A DNA stretch of 64,000 bases, from contig JAUYAV010000019.1 of the NCBI GenBank assembly GCA_030693325.1, forward strand, positions 134,618 through 198,617, given 5' to 3'. The first letter of the stretch is position 1. Every line of letters starts with the position of its first letter. Shown piece after piece: positions 5,087 through 48,298 of this stretch. The position numbers and the translations under genes are program-made. This stretch comes from a bacterium (GTDB lineage Bacteria > Patescibacteriota > Minisyncoccia > UBA6257 > MFKM01). The notes under the pieces were generated by a model that saw nothing but the letters and a program-made list of their open reading frames with translations, was not told the origin of the DNA and did no database searches.

Positions 5087-6889
5087 ATGGCAAAAATTTT
5101 AGGCATTGATTTAGGGACAACATATTCGGCGATGGCGGTTATTGAAGCGGGGGAGCCGAAAATAATTGAAAACGCCGAGGGCAACCGGACGACGCCTTCC
5201 GTTGTATCTTTGAGCAAAAACGAGGAACGGCTGGTGGGTTTGCTGGCGAAACGGCAATCAGTCACCAACCCCAAAAACACTATTTTTTCAGTGAAACGTT
5301 TAATTGGCCGGAGGTTCACCGACAAAACCGTCCAATATGATAAGACCTGGTTTTCGTATGAAATTAAGGAGGGAGCTAACGGCGGCGTGGAAATAAAAAT
5401 GGGCGACCGTTGGTATAAGCCCGAGGAAATTTCGGCGATGATTTTGCAAAAATTCAAAGCGGATGCCGAAGCCAAACTGGGAGAAAAAATTGATGAAGCG
5501 GTTATCACCGTGCCGGCTTATTTTGACGACAGTCAGCGCCAAGCGACCAAAAACGCCGGAGAAATCGCCGGATTTAAAGTGCGGCTTATTCTTAACGAGC
5601 CGACAGCCGCGGCTTTGGCTTATGGTTTGAATAAAAATAAAAACGAACAGATTATTGTCTATGATTTCGGCGGCGGCACTTTTGATATTTCCATTCTGGA
5701 AGTCAGCGAAGATGTCATTGAAGTAAAAGGAACCGGCGGCGACACCCATTTGGGCGGCGATGATTTTGATAAAAGAATAATTGATTATTTGGTTTCCGAA
5801 TATAAAAAACAGGAAGGGGCTGACATTTCCAAAGACCCGTTGGCTTTACAGCGCTTAAAAGAAGCGGCTGAACGTGCCAAGCACGAACTTTCTACCGCTT
5901 TAGAAACCGAAATTAATCTTCCTTATATTACGACCGATGCTTCCGGTCCCAAACATTTCCTGATGAAATTAACCCGGGCTAAACTGGAAGAATTAGTCGG
6001 CGATTTGATTGAGCGCTCCATAAAATTAGTTGATGAAACTTTAAAAGAAGCGAACTTCAAACCCGCGGACATTGAGCAAATAGTTTTGGTCGGCGGCCAG
6101 ACGAGAATGCCGGCGATTCAGGAAGCGGTCAAAAAATTTTTCGGCAAAGAACCGCATAAAGATGTCAATCCGGATGAAGTGGTAGCGGCCGGAGCGGCTA
6201 TTCAGGCCGGAATTCTTCAGGGCGAAGTAAAAGATATTCTGCTTTTGGATGTTTCGCCTTTAGGCCTAAGTATTGAAACTATGGGCGGAATCGCGACCCC
6301 GATGATTCCGAAAAACACCACCATCCCAACGGCTAAAACCCAGGTTTTTTCCACGGCGGCTGACAGCCAGACGGCGGTGGAAGTTCATGTGCTTCAGGGA
6401 GAGCGGGAAATGGCGGCTGACAATAAAACTTTGGGCAAATTTTTTCTTGACGGAATTCCGCCGGCGTCTCGGGGCGTGCCCCAAATTGAAGTCACTTTTG
6501 ACATTGATGCTAACGGCATTTTGAATGTTTCCGCTAAAGATAAAGCCAGCGGCAAAACCCAGTCAATCAGAATTGAGGCGACCACTTCATTAAATAAAGA
6601 AGAAGTGGAGAGGTTGAAACAGGAAGCGGCGCTTCACGCCGAAGAAGATAAGAAAAAGAAAGAGTTAGTGGAAGCGAAAAATCAGGCGGAGTCATTGATT
6701 TATCTGGCGGAAAAAACGCTGAAAGAAAACGGCGAAAAAATCGGCCAGGAAGCCAAAGATTCCTTAACGGCAAAAATAGAAAAAATAAAATCAACCAAAG
6801 AAAGCGATAATACAGAAGAAATCCAAGCGGCGGTCAACGAACTTTCTCAAGCTCTTCAAGACATCGGCAAAGGATTGTATAATAAATAA
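5087..6889 (+). CDS. dnaK: Molecular chaperone DnaK (Hsp70)
   Basis: [18 protein letters not shown]; DLGGGTFD; full Hsp70 ATPase and substrate-binding domains. Confidence 0.97.
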
Positions 6890-6892
6890 ATA

Positions 6893-7879
6893 ATGGCTGA
6901 TTTAATTTCTAAAGAAAGCGGCGGTTTTAATCAATCGTCTGTTAAAATTATCCCTCTTTTATTTTTGGAGATTGTTTCGGCTTTTTTGATGAGTTTTTAC
7001 TTTCGGCAGCTGATGACCGGTTTTAGCGTCCTGAATTTAATTTGGTTTTCAGCTGGGCTCGCTTTGTTTGTTATTATTTCTTTCCTAGCCGCTTTGTTTG
7101 TGAATGAATTACTATGGTCAAGTTTGGCGGCCGGTTTGTCGGTGATAGTCAGCCTGGCGGTTTTTTACGATTATTTTTCAGTGGTTTTGTTGGGATTCGG
7201 GTTTTTGATTTTTTTGATTTTGGTTTGGGGCATATCCAGATTAAAGACAGATTCAGATAATACCTTAAAGATTAATTTTTCTCACTTATCAAAAATATTT
7301 CTGTCTAAAATAACTTTAGCAACGGCGATTTTGCTTTGTCTTTTTGCTTATTTTTTGTTTTCTGCCAAGGGCGGTTTCCCGATTTCTTTTGAAAGTTTCC
7401 GGGTTTTCATACTGAAACCCAATGAAGGAATAATTAGTATTTTCGTTCCTAATTTTAAATTTCAGGAACCATTACAAAAGGTTTTGGCCGGCGTTCTGGA
7501 AAATCAATTATCCCAAAGTATCCCAAATTTTAAAAATTTACCGGCTTCAGTCAAAGAAACGGTTATCGCCTCGGCCGTTGATCAGGAATTCGGCGTTAGT
7601 TTGACCAAAGCTCTCGGTTATCAGGTCAATCTTAAGGACTCGGTTGACAAGGTTGTTTATGATTCTTTGGTGATAAAATTTGACCAGCTTGACCCAACGG
7701 CTAAAAATTGGATATATATCGGAGTTTTTGTTGCTTTGTTTTTTACCATCAGGTTTTTATTCATCCCGATAAATTGGGTGCTTTCTATTTTAATGTTTTT
7801 AATCTATCAATTACTGTTGGCGGTCAAGTTTGTCAGCATTAAATCGGAATCAAGAAGCAAGGAAGTTTTCAGTATATAA
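6893..7879 (+). CDS. Hypothetical polytopic membrane protein inserted between dnaK and dnaJ
   Basis: 328 aa, multiple hydrophobic helices, no recognisable motif. Confidence 0.5.
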   Translation: MADLISKESGGFNQSSVKIIPLLFLEIVSAFLMSFYFRQLMTGFSVLNLIWFSAGLALFVIISFLAALFVNELLWSSLAAGLSVIVSLAVFYDYFSVVLLGFGFLIFLILVWGISRLKTDSDNTLKINFSHLSKIFLSKITLATAILLCLFAYFLFSAKGGFPISFESFRVFILKPNEGIISIFVPNFKFQEPLQKVLAGVLENQLSQSIPNFKNLPASVKETVIASAVDQEFGVSLTKALGYQVNLKDSVDKVVYDSLVIKFDQLDPTAKNWIYIGVFVALFFTIRFLFIPINWVLSILMFLIYQLLLAVKFVSIKSESRSKEVFSI

Positions 7880-38147: not shown

Positions 38148-38219
38148 GGGTGTGTAGTTCAGTGGTAGAACGCTGTCCTGATAAGACAGAGGTCGGAGGT
38201 TCGATCCCTCCCACACCCA
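38148..38219 (+). tRNA. tRNA-Ile (anticodon GAT)
   Basis: Manual fold: acceptor GGGUGUG/CACACCC; anticodon loop CUGAUAA; T-loop GGTTCGATCC; no encoded CCA. Confidence 0.75.
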
Positions 38220-38261
38220 CTGGAAGAGTTCATTAATAATTCAGTTAAAAAGGAGGAAAGG

Positions 38262-39419: not shown

Positions 39420-39491
39420 GGGCCCGTAGTTCAGTGGTAGAACGCCTCATTTGCAATGAGGAGATCAGCGGTTCGATCCCGCTCGGGTCCA
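39420..39491 (+). tRNA. tRNA-Ala (anticodon TGC) with the G3:U70 identity pair
   Basis: Manual fold: GGGCCCG…CGGGUCC acceptor with G3·U70; anticodon loop UUUGCAA. Confidence 0.8.
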
Positions 39492-39602
39492 CAGGAACAA
39501 AGATTATTTCTTCCCAATTTTATGCTGTGGATAACTTGCTTTGGACTTTCTATTTACTTTCTAGTATACTGAAGCTGATAGTGAAAAGTTAATCCACACA
39601 TT

Positions 39603-41078
39603 ATGCTTACTAAACGCCAAAAACAAATTCTCGATTTTATTACCGACTATCAAAAACGAAAAAGGTATGCCCCCACTCTTGAAGATATATGCAAAAAATT
39701 TAAACTTGCATCGGTTTCAACGGCTCATTTTCATATTTCCAAACTTCGTGATTTGGGATATTTAACGAAGGAAGAAAACAAGCCTCGTTCCATCTCTGTT
39801 TCGAAACACGAGCAAATGGTTAAAATCCCTCTTTTGGGGACCATTGCCGCCGGACAACCAATTGAAGCAATCCAAAACAAAGAAATGATTGCGGTTCCCA
39901 AAAGTATGCTTCCACGTTCGTCGGAAGTATACGCGCTCCGCGTTGTTGGAAATAGTATGATTGACGAGAATATCAACGACGGCGATATCGTTTTAGTAAG
40001 ACAACAAGAAACAGCGGAGAATGGGCAAAAGGTCGTGGCGCTTATTGATAACCACGAAGCAACGCTCAAAAAGTATTATCAAGAGCGAGGACATATTCGC
40101 CTACAACCAGCTAATAAAAATATGGAGCCGATCATATTGCGAAATGGTCGGGATATTTCCATACAAGGAATAGTGCTTGATGTGATCAGAGATGCTGGCA
40201 CAGCTACTCTTAAGAAAGAACAAGTGAAAATGTATTCCGATACAAAACTATTAAAAAATACGCTTATATCTAAACCATATTATGAAAAACCAAAATTCAA
40301 ACTTTACCAAGCAAACTGCTTGGACATTCTTGCCAAACTTTCTGAAAATTCTGTTGATATGATTTTTGCCGATCCCCCCTATAATCTTTCAAACGGAGGC
40401 ATTACCGTTCACGCTGGACGAATGGTTAGCGTCAATAAAGGAGATTGGGACAAGAGCAAGGGATTCAAAGATGATTACGATTTTCATTACAAATGGATAG
40501 ATGCCTGTCGGAGAGTTTTAAAACCCCATGGTACACTTTGGGTTAGTGGCACTTACCATTCAATTTATCAATGCGGTTATGCTTTGCAGTCACTTGGATA
40601 CCAAATTCTAAACGATGTCGCTTGGTTCAAACCAAACGCATCGCCGAATTTAAGTTGCCGATATTTTACGGCAAGCCATGAAACTTTACTTTGGGCGAGA
40701 AAGGATAAAAAGGCAAAACATATTTTCAATTATGCTTTAATGAAAAATGGCAACTGGCCGGAAGATCAGCTAAAAAAACCAGGGCTTCAAATGCGTTCGG
40801 TTTGGGCGATGGGAACACCGAAAACAATTGAAAAAAGATTTGGAAAACATCCTACGCAAAAACCGGAAGATTTACTAAAACGAATCGTGCTTGCCTCAAC
40901 TAACAAGGGCGATTTAGTTGTTGATCCATTCACTGGAAGTTCAACAACTGGAATTGCCGCCTATCTTTTGGGACGGCACTTTATCGGTGTTGATACTGAA
41001 CCAAAGTATTTGGATGTATCAATAAAGCGATTTGAGGAATTGGATCGCAATCTAAAAAATAAATACAAAAAAGTATGA
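39603..41078 (+). CDS. Fusion protein: a full LexA-like repressor (wHTH, Ala-Gly cleavage site, S24 Ser/Lys peptidase) joined to a beta-class N6-adenine (DPPY) DNA methyltransferase
   Basis: LexA part: LGTIAAGQP, VVGNSM and ATLKKY. MTase part: IFADPPYNLS (motif IV) followed by VVDPFTGSSTTG (motif I). Confidence 0.8.
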   Translation: MLTKRQKQILDFITDYQKRKRYAPTLEDICKKFKLASVSTAHFHISKLRDLGYLTKEENKPRSISVSKHEQMVKIPLLGTIAAGQPIEAIQNKEMIAVPKSMLPRSSEVYALRVVGNSMIDENINDGDIVLVRQQETAENGQKVVALIDNHEATLKKYYQERGHIRLQPANKNMEPIILRNGRDISIQGIVLDVIRDAGTATLKKEQVKMYSDTKLLKNTLISKPYYEKPKFKLYQANCLDILAKLSENSVDMIFADPPYNLSNGGITVHAGRMVSVNKGDWDKSKGFKDDYDFHYKWIDACRRVLKPHGTLWVSGTYHSIYQCGYALQSLGYQILNDVAWFKPNASPNLSCRYFTASHETLLWARKDKKAKHIFNYALMKNGNWPEDQLKKPGLQMRSVWAMGTPKTIEKRFGKHPTQKPEDLLKRIVLASTNKGDLVVDPFTGSSTTGIAAYLLGRHFIGVDTEPKYLDVSIKRFEELDRNLKNKYKKV

Positions 41079-41590
41079 AAACAAAAGGAATAGGCGGAGG
41101 CAATACGATAACAGGGCTCAACTTTGAGAAAGAACGCGATATCTTGGCAATTCTTAAGAAAGCGAAAGATTATTCCGTAAAAGGCAATGTCATTTACTAT
41201 CAAGGAAAAGAAGTAGCTAGAAGTTATCGCAAGCAAGGTTTATATAAATTCTTAACAGGGGAGGGCGTTGATTGGCGAAAACTTATTTCAAAGCGTCTTT
41301 TACCGGACGAAGCCTTGTATGTGATTGCGAATAACACTCTTTTTATTATTGAGATGAAATTTCAAAAAGTCGCGGGTTCGGTTGATGAAAAGTTACAAAC
41401 CTGCGATTTTAAGAAGAAGCAGTACCGCAAACTTATGGCACCGCTGAATATTGAGGTTGAATATATCTATATTCTCAATGATTGGTTTAAAAATCCATCA
41501 TACAAGGATACTCTTGATTATGTTATTTCGGTCGGGTGCCAATACTATTTCAACTATCTCCCTCTTAAAAAATTAGGATTGCCGGTATAA
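41075..41590 (+). CDS. Putative type II restriction endonuclease (PD-(D/E)xK), translationally coupled to the methyltransferase through an ATGA overlap
   Basis: LPDEALYVI…IIEMKFQK gives a P-D…E-x-K arrangement. Confidence 0.5.
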   Translation: MKTKGIGGGNTITGLNFEKERDILAILKKAKDYSVKGNVIYYQGKEVARSYRKQGLYKFLTGEGVDWRKLISKRLLPDEALYVIANNTLFIIEMKFQKVAGSVDEKLQTCDFKKKQYRKLMAPLNIEVEYIYILNDWFKNPSYKDTLDYVISVGCQYYFNYLPLKKLGLPV

Positions 41591-43088: not shown

Positions 43089-44216
43089 ATGGAGCCGTTA
43101 GCATCAAAAATAAGACCGAAAATTTTGGAAGAATTTGTCGGTCAGGAGCATTTAGTCGGAGAAGGAAAGCCTTTTAATATAGCTATAAAACAAAAGCATT
43201 TGTTTTCTTTTATTTTATGGGGGCCTCCTGGAACCGGAAAAACTACTTTGGCCAAGATATATGCCAATAGTCTGAACGCAAAAATTTATGAATTGTCCGC
43301 GGTTTCGGCCGGAAAAGCGGATATCAGAAAAATACTAGAAGAAGACTCGGACGGAGTTCCTAAAGTTTTATTTTTAGACGAAATACATCGCTTTAATAAA
43401 TCCCAGCAGGACTTTCTGCTTCCTTATGTTGAAAGAGGGGAGATAATTTTGATTGGCGCCACTACCGAAAATCCGAGTTTTGAAGTGATATCGGCTTTGC
43501 TTTCCCGATGCCGAGTTTTCGTTTTAAATGAACTTTCAGAAAATAACATAAAGGCCATTATTAAAAGAACCGGAATGAAAATGGATGAAGCGGCGGAAGA
43601 TTGGCTGGTAAATGCGGCCAATGGCGATGCCAGACAAGTAATAACTTTGTTGGAAAACACCAGCGAACTTTATAAAAAGATTACGGTGGAAAATTTAAAA
43701 AACGTTCTCCAATCAAAGTTTTTGAGATACGACAAAGTCGGGGAAGAACATTACAACACTATTTCCGCCTTTATCAAAAGCATGAGAGCGAGCCAGCCTG
43801 ATGCGGCTTTGTATTATTTGGCTCGGATGATTGATTCCGGCGAAGACCCAAAATTTATAGCCAGAAGAATGGTTATTTTTGCTTCCGAGGATATTGGTTT
43901 GGCTCAGCCCACAGCCTTAGTAGTGGCTAATGATGTTTTTCGGGCCGTGGAAATAATCGGTCTGCCCGAATGCGGTATTAATTTGGCTCACGGAGTAGCT
44001 CATCTGTGCCAGTGTAAAAAAGACAGAAGAGCCCATGATGCTTATATGGAAGCGATGGAAGACGTAAAAAATTTCGGCAATCTTCCTATCCCTTTAAGTT
44101 TGCGGAATCCTGAGACAAAATTAATGAAAGATTTAAATTACGGCAAAGGATACGAAAAATATTCCAAGGAATCTTTTCTGCCCGAAAAATTAAAAGGAAA
44201 AAAATATTTAAAATAA
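43089..44216 (+). CDS. rarA: Replication-associated recombination protein RarA/MgsA (AAA+)
   Basis: WGPPGTGKTTLA; FLDEIHRFNKSQQD; MgsA C-terminal helical domain. Confidence 0.9.
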   Translation: MEPLASKIRPKILEEFVGQEHLVGEGKPFNIAIKQKHLFSFILWGPPGTGKTTLAKIYANSLNAKIYELSAVSAGKADIRKILEEDSDGVPKVLFLDEIHRFNKSQQDFLLPYVERGEIILIGATTENPSFEVISALLSRCRVFVLNELSENNIKAIIKRTGMKMDEAAEDWLVNAANGDARQVITLLENTSELYKKITVENLKNVLQSKFLRYDKVGEEHYNTISAFIKSMRASQPDAALYYLARMIDSGEDPKFIARRMVIFASEDIGLAQPTALVVANDVFRAVEIIGLPECGINLAHGVAHLCQCKKDRRAHDAYMEAMEDVKNFGNLPIPLSLRNPETKLMKDLNYGKGYEKYSKESFLPEKLKGKKYLK

Positions 44217-47200
44217 TGCCCCTGAATCTGGAAAAACTTAATAAAGAGCAAAAAGAAGCCGTGGTTCATGGCCAGGGGCCGCTTTTGATTGTGGCCGGAG
44301 CCGGAACCGGCAAAACGACGGTTATCACCCAGAGAATAGTTAATTTAATTGAAAAGGAGAAAGTTAAACCTGAAGAAATATTGGCCGTCACTTTTACCGA
44401 AAAGGCGGCCGCGGAAATGGAAGAAAGGGTTGATATTCTTTTGCCTTATGGCTATGTGGATTTGTGGATTTCCACTTTCCATTCTTTCTGCGAAAGGGTC
44501 TTGCGCGATTACGCTTTGGATATCGGCTTGCCGGCGGATTTTAAGATTTTAGACAACACGGCCGGCTGGCTTTTGGTTTATCGCAATCTGGAAAAATTCA
44601 ATCTCGATTATTACAAACCCCTGGGGAATCCGACCAAATTTATCCAGGCCCTGATTTCTCATTTTTCCCATTGCAAAGACCAGGCGATTTATCCCGAAGA
44701 TTATTTAAAATACGCCGAAAAGCTGAAAACCCGGGATGACGCGCCGGAAGAAAATGAAACCGAGAGGATAAAAGAAGTGGCGAACGCTTACCATGTTTAT
44801 CAGCGTTTGCTTTTGGAGAACAGTTCTCTGGATTTTGGCGATTTGATAAATTATTGTTTGAAATTGTTTCAGAAAAGGCCGCTGATTTTGAAAAAATATC
44901 GGGAAAAATTCAAATACATTTTAGTTGACGAATTTCAGGACACCAACTGGGCGCAATACGAGCTTATAAAAATCTTAGCGGCGCCGAAAAATAATCTGAC
45001 CGTCTGTGCCGACGATGACCAATGTTTGCCGGGCAATTCAAAAATAGAGATTTTTGAGAACGATAAAATCAAAATAAAGGAAATTAAAAAAATTGAAATA
45101 GGCGATAAAGCATTAACAGCCGTAGGAAAAGGTCATATAGGGGTTGCTAATGTGAATAATGTTTTCGTCAAAAACAAGAGGGCAAAGATATTAACCGTTA
45201 AAACAGAAGGCGGCTATTCAGTAAGCGTGACAGATAATCATAAAATGTTTTGCTGTGTTCCAAGAACTGCTCGGCAGAATTATCATTATGTTTATTTGAT
45301 GTTTAGAAAAAATTTGGGGTGGAGGATAGGGGTAACTGATGATTTAATTTTGCGGCTTAGGATAGAGCGTTCGGCAGATAAAATTTTGGCAATAAGGGCC
45401 TTTAACACTGATTCTGAAGCGAGATATCACGAAACATTGTGGTCGTTGAAGTACGGCATACCCACTTGTTGTTTTAAAAGCAGGGAAGGCATCGTTATCA
45501 AAGAAAATGAGTTGGCTAAATTATATAAGGAAATTAATACCGAAGATAATATACGGAAATTAGCTCAAGATTTAAATATTGACTTAGATTCGCCCCATTA
45601 TTGTCTAGATGCCGTTAACAGGGGAAGAAGCGTCAGGATAATCATCAATTTGCAAATGTGCTACAGAAATTACCGAAGCAAGGAACACGTCAGAAGCGAG
45701 AAAACTCTGCTTTTGAATGGCTTGACAAGGCACAGGCTTTATTTGGAAACGTCAGACAAGCAAACAATTAAGAAGCTAAAAACAGCAGGATATATTCTTT
45801 ATAAAGCGAGGAAAGGAATGAAATTAAACATAGAAGGAGGCGATGTAAAAGATCTTGAAGGAAAAGCAAGAGCGATAGAAAAAATTACAGGCGGATTCAT
45901 AGAATATAAATTTAATGTTGCGAGCAAATACAGCAAGCCGTCAGGCACGGCACGAAATTATATGTCTTTGATTATGCCCGCAAAAAATTTAGTTTTAGGA
46001 CACTATCTTCCGGTAAAAAAAGGCGCTGAGATAATTTACGATAAAATAATTTCAATTAAAGAAGTTGATAAAAAAATAAAAGTATATGATTTGGAAATCG
46101 ACAAAACCCATAATTTTATAGCCAACGGAATAGTGGTCCACAATTCTGTTTATAGGTGGAGAGGGGCATCTTATAGCAACATAGTCCAATTCAATAAAGA
46201 TTTCCCGAAAGCCGAGCAAATTTCTTTGGTTAAAAATTACCGGTCCGGCCAGAATATTTTGGATTTGGCTTATAAATTCATAAAAGCCAATAATCCCGAC
46301 CGCCTTGAATACGTAAATAAAATAAACAAGGAATTAATCGCCCAGGAAAAAGGTGAAGGCAAAATAGAGCATATTTTGGCGAAGAACCTGGAAGAAGAAG
46401 TTGATAAAACAATAAAGAAGATCTTAGGGATTCTTAAAAAAGACAAAGACGCCGGTTATAACGATTTTGCGATTTTAGTCAGAGCCAATGACGCGGCCAA
46501 TCCTTTTATTAAGGCCCTGGAGCGCGCGGGCTTGCCTTATCAATTTTTGGCTTCAAGAGGGCTTTATTCAAAGCCGGTTATTTTGGACGTAATCTCATAT
46601 TTCAAACTTTTGGATAATTACCACGAGAGCCCGGCGGTTTACCGGATCTTGAATATGCCATTTTTGGAAATCCCGCCCGCGGATATTATGAAGCTTACTC
46701 AATACAGCCACAAAAAAACAAAGTCGCTTTATGAGGCGATGGAAGAGCTTCCTCTAATTCCGGGAATTTCTCCGGAAGTTCAGGAAAAAATCCTTTTCGT
46801 TTTGAGCTTGATTAAAAAACACGCCATTTTTGCCAAAGAAAAATCGGTCTCGGAAATAATGATTGCATTTCTTAAAGAGTCGGGATATATAAAATATTTA
46901 ACGAAAAAAGACGACAAAGAACAGTTTGATTTACTCAATCAATTCCATAAAAAAGTGAAGAATTTTGAGAGTGCGGCAATAGAGCCGACTTTAGGCAATT
47001 TTATGCGGGAAATAAATCTTGAGATAGAATCCGGCGAAGAAGGAAAGCTTGAATTTGACCCCGAGCAAGGCCCGGACATGATAAAAATAATGACTATCCA
47101 CGGAGCTAAGGGCTTGGAATTCAAATATGTTTTTTTGGTTAATATGGTGGATAAAAGATTTCCGACAATGGAAAGAAAGGATTTAATTGAGCTACCCGAA

Positions 47201-48298
47201 GATTTAATCAAAGACATAAAGCCAACTGGGGATGTTCATTTGCAGGAAGAAAGGCGCATTTGCTATGTGGCCATTACCAGAGCCAAGAAAGATATTTATT
47301 TCACTTCGGCTGAAGATTATGGCGGGGTGAGAAAAAAGAAATTGTCTCGCTTTCTGATTGAAATGGGATACCAGGAAAAAACTGAAAAACCGAAAAACTT
47401 AAAAACTCAAAACGAAATGCTCGCGGAGAAACCGATTTCGGTCGGGACAAAAAACAAGCCGATGCCGGATTATCTGCCGAAACATTTTTCGTATTCGCAA
47501 TTGGCGGCTTTTGACAAGTGTCCGTTGCAGTATAAATTCGCTTTTATTCTGAAGGTTCCGACCAGAGGCAAGGCCGTGTTTTCTTTCGGGAAGACGATGC
47601 ATAATACTTTTTATGAATTTTTAAAATACGCCAACGAAGGCAGCGCGAGCAATCAAACAAATTTGTTCGGGTTTGAAGAAAAAACAATTAAGGCCGGTAA
47701 AAAAGCCCTGTCTGCCGGCAGGCATGAAAAATCTTTAGATTTAGACGATTTAACGGAAATTTATGAGAAAAACTGGATTGACGAATGGTATGAGAGTAAA
47801 AAACAAAAAGAGGATTATCGCAAGCTCGGCAGGAAAATAATTAAAGATTTTTATGATGAATTTGTAAAAAATCCGCCGAAAGTTTTAAAAATCAATAATG
47901 CCTTTGCTTTGGAAATGCCGTTTAACCTGAAAATAGGGGGATATGCCTTATACGGCGTGGTGGACAGAATTGATGAAGAGGATGGTGGCGTGACCATCAT
48001 TGATTACAAAACAGGAAATTCTAAAGACAAGCTGTATCCGGGCGATAAAGAACAATTGTTGATTTATCAGATAGCGGCTGAAGAGATATTCAAACTAAAG
48101 CCCCAAAAATTGGCTTATCATTATTTAACCGACGGCAAGAAAGCGTCTTTTCTCGGAACGGAAAAAGAGAAAGAACAGCTGAAAGAAAAAATAATCCAAG
48201 AGATTGAAGAAATAAAAGGCAGTGATTTCAAGGCGAAGCCGAGTCAGCTTTGCGCTTTCTGCGATTTCAAGGATATTTGCGATTCCGCTCAGAGATAG
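44216..48298 (+). CDS. UvrD/PcrA-family helicase fused to a C-terminal RecB/Cas4-like PD-(D/E)xK nuclease (AddA-like). It is interrupted by an intein in helicase motif III.
   Basis: AGAGTGKTT; DEFQDTN; …CADDDQ|C…HN|SVYRWRGAS; C-terminal IIDYKTG and CAFCDFKDICD. Confidence 0.9.
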   Translation: MPLNLEKLNKEQKEAVVHGQGPLLIVAGAGTGKTTVITQRIVNLIEKEKVKPEEILAVTFTEKAAAEMEERVDILLPYGYVDLWISTFHSFCERVLRDYALDIGLPADFKILDNTAGWLLVYRNLEKFNLDYYKPLGNPTKFIQALISHFSHCKDQAIYPEDYLKYAEKLKTRDDAPEENETERIKEVANAYHVYQRLLLENSSLDFGDLINYCLKLFQKRPLILKKYREKFKYILVDEFQDTNWAQYELIKILAAPKNNLTVCADDDQCLPGNSKIEIFENDKIKIKEIKKIEIGDKALTAVGKGHIGVANVNNVFVKNKRAKILTVKTEGGYSVSVTDNHKMFCCVPRTARQNYHYVYLMFRKNLGWRIGVTDDLILRLRIERSADKILAIRAFNTDSEARYHETLWSLKYGIPTCCFKSREGIVIKENELAKLYKEINTEDNIRKLAQDLNIDLDSPHYCLDAVNRGRSVRIIINLQMCYRNYRSKEHVRSEKTLLLNGLTRHRLYLETSDKQTIKKLKTAGYILYKARKGMKLNIEGGDVKDLEGKARAIEKITGGFIEYKFNVASKYSKPSGTARNYMSLIMPAKNLVLGHYLPVKKGAEIIYDKIISIKEVDKKIKVYDLEIDKTHNFIANGIVVHNSVYRWRGASYSNIVQFNKDFPKAEQISLVKNYRSGQNILDLAYKFIKANNPDRLEYVNKINKELIAQEKGEGKIEHILAKNLEEEVDKTIKKILGILKKDKDAGYNDFAILVRANDAANPFIKALERAGLPYQFLASRGLYSKPVILDVISYFKLLDNYHESPAVYRILNMPFLEIPPADIMKLTQYSHKKTKSLYEAMEELPLIPGISPEVQEKILFVLSLIKKHAIFAKEKSVSEIMIAFLKESGYIKYLTKKDDKEQFDLLNQFHKKVKNFESAAIEPTLGNFMREINLEIESGEEGKLEFDPEQGPDMIKIMTIHGAKGLEFKYVFLVNMVDKRFPTMERKDLIELPEDLIKDIKPTGDVHLQEERRICYVAITRAKKDIYFTSAEDYGGVRKKKLSRFLIEMGYQEKTEKPKNLKTQNEMLAEKPISVGTKNKPMPDYLPKHFSYSQLAAFDKCPLQYKFAFILKVPTRGKAVFSFGKTMHNTFYEFLKYANEGSASNQTNLFGFEEKTIKAGKKALSAGRHEKSLDLDDLTEIYEKNWIDEWYESKKQKEDYRKLGRKIIKDFYDEFVKNPPKVLKINNAFALEMPFNLKIGGYALYGVVDRIDEEDGGVTIIDYKTGNSKDKLYPGDKEQLLIYQIAAEEIFKLKPQKLAYHYLTDGKKASFLGTEKEKEQLKEKIIQEIEEIKGSDFKAKPSQLCAFCDFKDICDSAQR
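45023..46144 (+). mobile_element. Intein (~374 aa) with a putative, degenerate homing-endonuclease core
   Basis: Cys1 (CLPGNSKI); block B TDNHKM; C-terminal VVHN followed by Ser+1; the extein motif III DDDQ/SVYRWRGA is restored on excision. Confidence 0.8.

Follow-up and report, generated by a model that had tools for sequence, protein, structure and literature searches.

LexA–methylase fusions point to patescibacterial lexA as an exchange site for restriction–modification cassettes

A single gene of an ultra-small Patescibacteria bacterium encodes a complete LexA repressor joined to a β-class DNA methylase, and comparison with related loci indicates that lexA in this lineage hosts many interchangeable cassettes of this kind. 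The DNA analysed (the window) is a stretch of 64,000 nt from contig JAUYAV010000019.1 of assembly GCA_030693325.1, positions 134,618-198,617. Within it, the fusion gene (open reading frame 1, ORF1; 39603-41078, + strand) is followed by an overlapping gene, ORF2, for a putative nuclease. The explanation that we favour, and hold to be reasonably probable, is that the organism's lexA captured a restriction–modification (RM) cassette of the DpnII/DpnA kind, giving a self-repressing operon that is one allele of a polymorphic site.

ORF1 (491 aa) is a single open frame with neither a stop nor a frameshift. An earlier, sequence-only reading of this stretch had described it as carrying a complete LexA, with its helix-turn-helix (HTH), Ala-Gly cleavage site and catalytic Ser and Lys, and profile searches bore this out. 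All three Pfam families which that reading had named for ORF1 were matched: LexA_DNA_bind (PF01726) at residues 2-62 (E=1e-13), Peptidase_S24 (PF00717) at residues 76-191 (E=8e-32) and N6_N4_Mtase (PF01555) at residues 251-473 (E=7e-59, 219/221 model positions). The NCBIfam lexA equivalog TIGR00498, a 203-position model, scored 194.5 bits over residues 2-197 against a cutoff of 110.95. Among solved structures, the LexA half matched T. maritima LexA (3k2z, E=1e-35) and E. coli LexA (E~1e-22, residues 2-197). The features of the two genes are as follows.

39603..40193 (+): LexA module, ORF1 residues 1-197, with winged HTH, cleavage site and S24 catalytic/dimerisation domain, from Pfam, NCBIfam and structure matches
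39849-39854 (+): scissile Ala83-Gly84 in TIAA/GQP, from the ORF1 translation
39954-39956 (+): S24 Ser118 in GNSM, from the ORF1 translation
40068-40070 (+): S24 Lys156 in TLKK, from the ORF1 translation
40194..40277 (+): variable linker, ORF1 residues 198-225, the sole poorly conserved stretch in the family alignment
40278..41078 (+): methylase module, ORF1 residues 226-491, β-class N6-adenine (or N4-cytosine), PF01555
40371-40382 (+): DPPY, ORF1 residues 257-260, catalytic motif
40923-40952 (+): S-adenosylmethionine (SAM) motif DPFTGSSTTG, ORF1 residues 441-450, FxGxS form
41075..41590 (+): ORF2, 171 aa, putative restriction endonuclease of the PD-(D/E)xK type, its start ATG lying within the ATGA that holds the ORF1 stop
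41303-41308 (+): ORF2 P77-D78 of the PD-(D/E)xK motif
41351-41359 (+): ORF2 E93-x-K95 of the PD-(D/E)xK motif

Because DPPY comes ahead of the SAM motif, the methylase was assigned to the β-class. This motif order had been given correctly in the sequence-only reading; its motif I, given as FxGxG, reads FxGxS, a trivial difference. The residues A83-G84, S118 and K156, the DPPY and the SAM motif were all invariant in 15 fused relatives (62-86% identical to ORF1), and A83-G84, S118 and K156 were also invariant in 18 mostly unfused relatives. A predicted structure of full-length ORF1 (mean predicted local distance difference test score, pLDDT, 63; predicted template modelling score 0.49; linker pLDDT 26-36) was too weak for domain packing and says only that the LexA and methylase modules would fold separately with a flexible link. 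An identical ORF1 protein is encoded by an independently assembled Logan contig, and a search of 5.8 billion proteins recovered the three-domain architecture in >120 clusters (90% identity level), 62-100% identical to ORF1, from NCBI, JGI, ENA and Logan under names including Parcubacteria and Woesebacteria. The junction on which the earlier description depended is therefore real and not an assembly artefact.

ORF2 is translationally coupled to ORF1 through the ATGA overlap, which was confirmed in the sequence, and the PD...ExK signature that had been read in it (P77-D78...E93-x-K95) proved invariant in 28 homologs. Its fold match was weak, though dominated by nucleases, and comparison by sequence with solved structures gave one marginal, uninformative match. 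ORF2 is likely to be a PD-(D/E)xK nuclease.

Recurrence of the fusion elsewhere, which the sequence-only reading had put forward as a check, extended in Patescibacteria well beyond the clusters above. A metagenome scan by LexA-only alignment collected 80 loci with LexA 70-86% identical to that of the window. Complete lexA ORFs in this sample were fusions of 443-613 aa in 60 of 63 cases, and at least 12 of the 17 cut by contig ends already ran beyond LexA length. Most of these fusions carry methylases other than the window's. When the fused C-terminal modules of the metagenome loci and of 11 genome-locus fusions were clustered at 45% identity, eleven clusters were obtained, 21-38% identical to the window's methylase; one of them (CT7) is the window's methylase type with an extra C-terminal domain, and there are therefore ten distinct methylase types, not eleven. 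Representatives of the nine types besides the window's all matched PF01555. The methylase clusters pair one-to-one with partner clusters of their own, and the partner families include TaqI (E=5e-36), BglII (E=1e-20), BsaWI, PvuII, HNH and His-Me finger/endonuclease VII.

The boundaries of exchange are sharp. LexA domains with 95-97% identity carry unrelated methylases, and DNA homology between alleles runs from ~55 bp upstream of the start to codon ~197, is gone across the methylase and nuclease genes (M and R), and is back exactly past the nuclease gene. Since homology is lost between codon ~197 and the nuclease end while the flanks are conserved, the methylase-plus-nuclease block appears to be exchanged as a unit. 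On these comparisons, lexA appears to be a site that hosts at least ten interchangeable RM cassettes as in-frame fusions, widespread and modular in Patescibacteria. In ~28 related loci the nuclease gene is in convergent orientation and has a 73-aa HTH_3 gene upstream of it, in most cases no more than 10 bp away; this gene sits in the conserved flank common to different cassettes and is not cassette-specific. No homolog of it was found in the window. Examples are given below.

L096, 5302-5520 (-): 73-aa HTH_3 gene
L100, 6000-6218: 73-aa HTH_3 gene
L102, 6239-6457: 73-aa HTH_3 gene

Unrelated fused methylases often end in ...LF (KLF, TLF or SLFE, in L096, L103, L145, L102, L138 and L171), an ending that the window protein lacks and that may be a shared C-terminal peptide motif.

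The identity of the constant half was examined by searching with residues 1-199. Unfused LexA proteins of 205-220 aa were retrieved that are 65-85% identical to the LexA half of ORF1 and are annotated as LexA in Uhrbacteria, Liptonbacteria, Berkelbacteria and others; they are as similar to it as the fusions are to one another. A single promoter layout, a decamer followed by an 11-bp-period repeat abutting the -10, is common to 19 fusion genes and three unfused lexA genes. The LexA half thus appears from its relatives to be the organism's own SOS LexA and not an add-on RM regulator.

The unfused genes also bear traces of exchange. In two of the three seen in context, the gene of a DpnI-family nuclease (PF06044 + PF17726) begins 6-8 bp further on, the third is followed by an NmeDI_C-domain protein, and two further lexA-DpnI loci were present in the metagenome sample. 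DpnI enzymes are methyl-GATC-dependent (PMC3812788). Remnants of ORF2, truncated at the 5' end, lie downstream in L089 (residues 28-171, locus positions 6593-7024), L127 (residues 62-171, with an internal stop, 5602-5934) and L091 (residues 94-171, 6745-6978). Between the window and the lexA-DpnI and lexA-NmeDI_C loci, homology ends at the LexA end and picks up inside these remnants, which look like scars of cassette replacement. These loci are most simply explained by a methylation-dependent nuclease having overwritten a lexA::M-ORF2 allele of the window's type, un-fusing LexA, and the unfused alleles look secondary.

A selfish lock-in without regulatory meaning would be compatible with the structural part of the favoured explanation and would differ from it on adaptive value only. 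One ancestral fusion would have had later cassettes swapped in past its linker, separation of the two halves would be lethal, and the lexA promoter would merely be a convenient constitutive, self-limiting promoter. The sharp shared breakpoints, at codon ~197 and past the nuclease, agree with this, as does a linker motif (I/L-x-F/L-P-E-Y-K) shared by several methylase modules that have no other relationship, suggesting a single origin of the junction; RM systems, moreover, behave as addiction modules (PMC3874152). We nevertheless regard the lock-in as rather unlikely. The Ala-Gly site and Ser/Lys dyad are invariant in all fused forms, which argues that selection maintains the ability of the fused proteins to be cleaved, and two loci suggest an independent functional link between S24 repressors and RM: in L050 (7731-8408) and L069 (7965-8531), a divergent HTH+S24 gene (LexA-like, 27-32% identical) lies directly upstream of a standalone methylase of the window's type and an ORF2-type nuclease. 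This unfused association may be independent of the fusion.

The self-repressing operon that we favour would be expressed from the lexA promoter, for which the following elements were placed upstream of ORF1.

39526..39535 (+): DnaA-box-like decamer TGTGGATAAC (reverse complement of TTATCCACA, the DnaA-box consensus), directly upstream of the -35
39541..39570 (+): putative lexA promoter, assigned by sequence, with -35 TTGGAC at 39541-39546, an 18-nt spacer and -10 TATACT at 39565-39570
39545..39562 (+): putative LexA operator, direct repeat ACTTTCT-ATTT-ACTTTCT with a period of 11 bp, in the -35/-10 spacer
39588..39598 (+): imperfect inverted DnaA-box-like copy (GTTAATCCACA), between the -10 and the start codon, assigned by sequence

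The period-11 repeat was found upstream of 19/19 fusion genes in genome loci (18 by script and the GCTCGG variant of L012 by eye) and at the promoters of the three unfused lexA genes examined, and at 0/~68 standalone-methylase promoters. In locus after locus, the -10 follows straight on the second repeat unit. The type of repeat co-varies with the LexA recognition helix in all 65 loci compared, H-F-H occurring with TTTC(T/G)A (48 loci) and H-(Q/E)-H with TTTCGG (17 loci), and when the pattern was run over 2.0 Mb of locus sequence, 89 of its 98 matches fell at lexA promoters. Because of its position in the spacer, its specificity for lexA promoters and its co-variation with the helix, the direct repeat is probably an autoregulatory LexA operator. 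It resembles the alphaproteobacterial LexA box GTTC-N7-GTTC. According to a published summary, direct-repeat recognition by LexA arose independently in several lineages, and a Patescibacteria study is among the papers cited there (PMC7739468).

The decamer TGTGGATAAC, allowing <=1 mismatch, precedes 19/19 of the genome-locus fusion genes as well as the three unfused lexA genes; at the same stringency, it matched 6 of ~68 standalone-methylase promoters. Nearly all lexA promoters of the clade keep the box, in one orientation or the other, and DNA homology with five of nine other lexA loci compared begins at 39522-39526, i.e. at the decamer. The inverted box near the start codon is also seen in some other loci (L143, L153). 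The copy at 39526-39535 is the sole one within the window and is therefore not an origin cluster; it may provide a DnaA input into lexA::methylase expression.

The leaders of these genes differ between loci. At many lexA promoters (L009, L091, L096 and others) TATAAT ends just 6-7 nt ahead of the ATG, so that the lexA::methylase mRNA of those loci would have no leader or almost none; the window's leader is longer (~30 nt) and has no obvious Shine-Dalgarno sequence. Upstream, a tRNA-Ala(TGC) gene (39420-39492) ends ~30 bp ahead of the conserved promoter unit, with a tRNA-Ile(GAT) gene (38148-38220) 1.2 kb further away, and this upstream context differs from that of other lexA loci.

In the mechanism that we propose, the methylase of a type II RM cassette would have been captured at the 3' end of lexA, with ORF2 as the endonuclease of that cassette. 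Both genes would be transcribed from the lexA promoter, and the fusion protein would repress its own synthesis and that of the nuclease. In the undamaged cell, negative autoregulation would keep the methylase, and here also the nuclease, low and fixed. RecA on single-stranded DNA (ssDNA), arising from damage or from incoming strands, would bring about cleavage at Ala83-Gly84, so that the DNA-binding domain would be released, the operon de-repressed and an S24-domain::methylase fragment left behind. In a newly entered cell there would be no repressor, and the de-repressed operon would give a methylase-first burst, as with HTH-methylases and C proteins. The most likely outcome would be more modification capacity when repair, recombination or DNA uptake makes unmethylated sites, a form of SOS-linked restriction alleviation; in type I systems, damage-induced restriction alleviation protects unmodified sites from repair and recombination (PMC3874165). 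The rare unfused alleles would then be those with a DpnI-type or NmeDI_C nuclease in place of the cassette, plus the ORF2 remnants.

Several points weigh against this mechanism. M and R would rise together in the window on de-repression, so that the net effect on restriction versus protection is not predictable from sequence, and most related loci have the convergent nuclease behind its own HTH_3 gene, so that R is not generally under LexA control. Addiction might suffice to keep the fusion, with no gain in regulation, since splitting it would silence the methylase beside an active nuclease. As to a wider LexA regulon, a period-11 scan of the window gave a few extra matches, and the two examined lie inside the coding sequences of threonyl-tRNA synthetase (ThrRS) and EF-G and were therefore treated as chance; the one recA found among the collected loci was truncated. 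No second copy of lexA or of the methylase was found in the window, which spans only 64 kb. Nuclease de-repression is plausible in the co-directional layout of the window, and cannot be the general logic of the fusions.

Were de-repression of the nuclease the purpose of the arrangement, the outcome would be suicidal or abortive-infection-like: the S24::methylase fragment would be degraded after cleavage, and the nuclease would cut the cell's own or an invader's DNA. R is indeed coupled to lexA::M in the window and would hence be under the lexA promoter, and the DpnI-type nuclease 6-8 bp after unfused lexA would likewise be LexA-controlled. An N-terminal fragment ending in ...TIAA would also be similar to that of cleaved E. 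coli LexA, whose end ClpX recognises and whose fragments are degraded. However, in most fusion loci R lies on the opposite strand behind the HTH_3 gene, outside the lexA transcript, and self-restriction at each SOS episode would be very costly where RecA is presumably in routine use; we therefore consider a suicide function unlikely.

For the captured RM cassette of the favoured explanation, the probable specificity was assessed from relatives of the methylase half. Scanning one genome per species yielded at least 580 relatives, and the best 80 were analysed. Most of these 80 are standalone methylases of ~270 aa, 73-93% identical to the window's methylase half, and ~20 are LexA fusions. Nearly all have a tightly linked partner gene, and their upstream flanks are unrelated between genomes. 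The partners fell into the following families.

ORF2 family (tandem, convergent or upstream): 31 loci
MutH/Sau3AI-like (PF02976): 29 loci
DpnII family (PF04556, E=3.5e-89): 7 loci
DUF6996/DUF6997: 7 loci
Two small families without a Pfam match: 3 and 2 loci

DpnII- and MutH/Sau3AI-type enzymes cut GATC. In the window, GATC occurs 75 times against 219 expected (Markov), a ratio of 0.34, and is the second most avoided 4-bp palindrome. Since close methylases (73-93%) pair with DpnII and MutH nucleases, GATC was taken as the site, and the window methylase is probably GATC-specific and DpnA-like. The RM operon proposed in the sequence-only reading gains support from the same evidence, namely the DpnII, MutH and ORF2-family genes that follow these methylases and the avoidance of GATC. 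ORF1 and ORF2 are thereby supported as a type II restriction–modification pair, and we infer that ORF2 is one among several alternative cognate nucleases of a DpnA-like methylase.

An orphan regulatory methylase of the CcrM kind, with ORF2 unrelated to it, is highly improbable. CcrM (6pbd, E=3e-56) is the best solved-structure match of the methylase half, over the catalytic domain; conservation of the methylase family over many lineages of Patescibacteria is unusually high (73-93%); and a DnaA-box-like element is present in the promoter. The CcrM alignment ends at residue 257/366, however, the NCBIfam CcrM model NF050803 scored 250 bits against a cutoff of 830 (positions 5-255 of 350), and the CcrM C-terminal domain is absent from ORF1. 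Almost every family member is linked to a nuclease-family partner, DpnII and MutH among them, and the flanks are unrelated between genomes, as for a mobile cassette. GATC is depleted whereas GANTC is not (179 observed in the window, 206 expected), and GANTC specificity, hinted at by the CcrM match, was ruled out on this count and by the DpnII/MutH partners of close orthologs. As for an assembly or frameshift artefact joining lexA to the methylase, the identical ORF on an independent assembly, the >120 clusters and the 60 further complete fusions to other methylases, from many sites, leave it practically no chance.

Further observations were made on palindrome usage. The most avoided 4-bp palindrome in the window is TCGA (25 observed, 165 expected, 0.15), and the ratio for CTAG is 0.38. 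TCGA is the site of TaqI-family nucleases, which in related genomes are among the partners of LexA::methylase fusions, and its avoidance suggests that the host has also been, or still is, exposed to a TCGA system. Six of the 75 GATC sites lie within the 1.5-kb fusion gene (40130-41043), ~3.5x the background density, one of them in the DPPY codons, and there is none in ORF2. This density may reflect recent cassette acquisition or conserved-codon constraint.

An additional C-terminal domain of ~120 aa, conserved but unmatched in Pfam (...SIPAYV..WTDK.FHQSA...LLDTT.L..E.KRQLGYDY...), is found in some methylases of the window's type. Its carriers are listed below.

L009, 8001-9821: extra ~120-aa domain
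L011, 5427-7268: extra ~120-aa domain
L095 and L131: extra ~120-aa domain
L023, L027 and L061: extra ~120-aa domain on standalone methylases

The Patescibacteria-type methylase (73-92% identity) was also present in records named Legionellaceae, Gammaproteobacteria, Methylomirabilis, Pseudomonadales, Rubritalea, Udaeobacter, Omnitrophota and Lutibacter (L012, L020, L033, L036, L037, L042, L055, L081 and L086). About half of these contigs are 2.7-6.3 kb long, a size that points to mis-binning; for two large ones, of 234 kb and 593 kb, real transfer is possible. A scan of viral contigs returned methylase-only relatives and no fused form, and with viral contigs lacking any fused form, a phage-repressor origin was rejected. 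Elsewhere in the window, at 44216-48298 (+), lies a gene for a 1360-aa UvrD/AddB-like helicase-nuclease with an intein (PF14890, Intein_splicing) between UvrD-helicase and UvrD_C.

No description of the LexA–methylase fusion was found in the searchable literature, including a 2026 preprint on methyltransferases of the candidate phyla radiation and a 2024 Patescibacteria perspective; a 2017 study of the SOS network in Patescibacteria (Environ Microbiol 2017;19:3465) lay outside that scope. The sequence-only reading was aware of no characterised RM system with a full LexA on its methyltransferase, and this held within the literature searched: the components are all of known kinds, and for the combination we found no report. 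The present analysis goes further in pointing to the LexA half as the organism's own SOS LexA, to the arrangement as widespread and modular and to the methylase as most likely GATC-specific. Such proteins are currently labelled "modification methylase" or "LexA, partial", and surveys of Patescibacteria SOS regulators or RM systems may consequently miscount both.

RM systems need tight regulation to spare the host, and known systems achieve this by small, dedicated means, whether C proteins, HTH-methylases or promoter methylation. In the present arrangement the protective enzyme itself contains, by covalent fusion, a global stress regulator, and a single chromosomal gene appears to serve as the exchange point for many systems. 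If the proposed logic is true, it would constitute a direct molecular link from the SOS signal to protection of the cell's own genome, analogous in type II systems to restriction alleviation. It would also illustrate how bacteria that have reduced genomes, depend on hosts and are probably naturally competent can reconcile taking up DNA with defending against it, and would predict population-level methylation polymorphism at one locus. A bolder proposal, which we offer only tentatively, is that lexA is a dedicated docking and control platform that places a RecA/ssDNA sensor in the methylase, so that damage, or DNA acquired through the competence machinery on which these epibionts rely, would directly reprogram modification versus restriction as a LexA-based counterpart of DpnA. 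Swapping of cassettes, including DpnI-type versus GATC-methylase alleles, would on this proposal diversify host-range barriers within populations.

Among type II methylases, M.SsoII, M.EcoRII, M.MspI and M.Ecl18kI are autoregulated through an HTH. Methylases that repress their own promoter via an N-terminal HTH are known, as are C proteins (PMC3874152). ORF1 resembles the HTH-methylases in its N-terminal DNA-binding domain, in a putative operator placed over the methylase promoter and in a presumably self-limited expression that would set the M/R balance (PMC3874152). It differs from them in that its N-terminus is a complete, ~200-residue host LexA, with an S24 self-cleavage domain and an Ala-Gly site, that stays constant while the methylase is swapped; lacking a small cassette-specific HTH, ORF1 works like this class but is not a member of it. 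The ~28 related loci with a 73-aa HTH_3 gene upstream of a convergent nuclease recall the C-R-operon layout of C-protein systems; unlike in those systems, the window has no C gene and its nuclease is coupled to lexA::M, and the HTH_3 gene of the related loci belongs to the shared flank.

LexA-repressed toxin-antitoxins (symE, tisB, dinJ-yafQ, yafNO; PMC3874152) offer another parallel, the SOS repressor being wired there too to a pair of genes with lethal potential. In those modules LexA acts in trans, whereas here the protective part is physically within LexA and the module lies inside the lexA operon. Lambda CI, SXT SetR and UmuD share the S24 self-cleavage chemistry that responds to activated RecA, and UmuD'/UmuD structures matched residues 96-198 (E~1e-10); unlike these proteins, ORF1 passes the LexA equivalog and groups with chromosomal Patescibacteria LexA. 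To CcrM and M.HinfI (GANTC) the likeness is that of the catalytic domain, for which they are the best match, and the low CcrM score (250 vs 830 bits), the missing C-terminal domain and the GATC-pointing partners set ORF1 apart.

DpnA of the pneumococcal DpnII system is a β-class methylase, as is that of the window. Induced during competence, it protects incoming DNA (PMC3812788), and the lexA loci would share with it the placing of a methylase under a stress or DNA-uptake regulon. The likeness to the pneumococcal DpnI/DpnII locus (PMC3812788, PMC3573125) extends to mutually exclusive cassettes at one site, of the DpnI type on the one hand and of a GATC methylase plus a nuclease for unmethylated GATC on the other. 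In contrast to that locus, the signal here would be RecA/LexA and not ComX, and the methylase is covalently fused to its regulator. In contrast to the DpnII system (dpnM-dpnA-dpnB), the window has no α-class DpnM or second methylase, and its nuclease is not of PF04556. Finally, the patescibacterial site, unlike the pneumococcal one, appears to accept many non-GATC cassettes at the same lexA gene.

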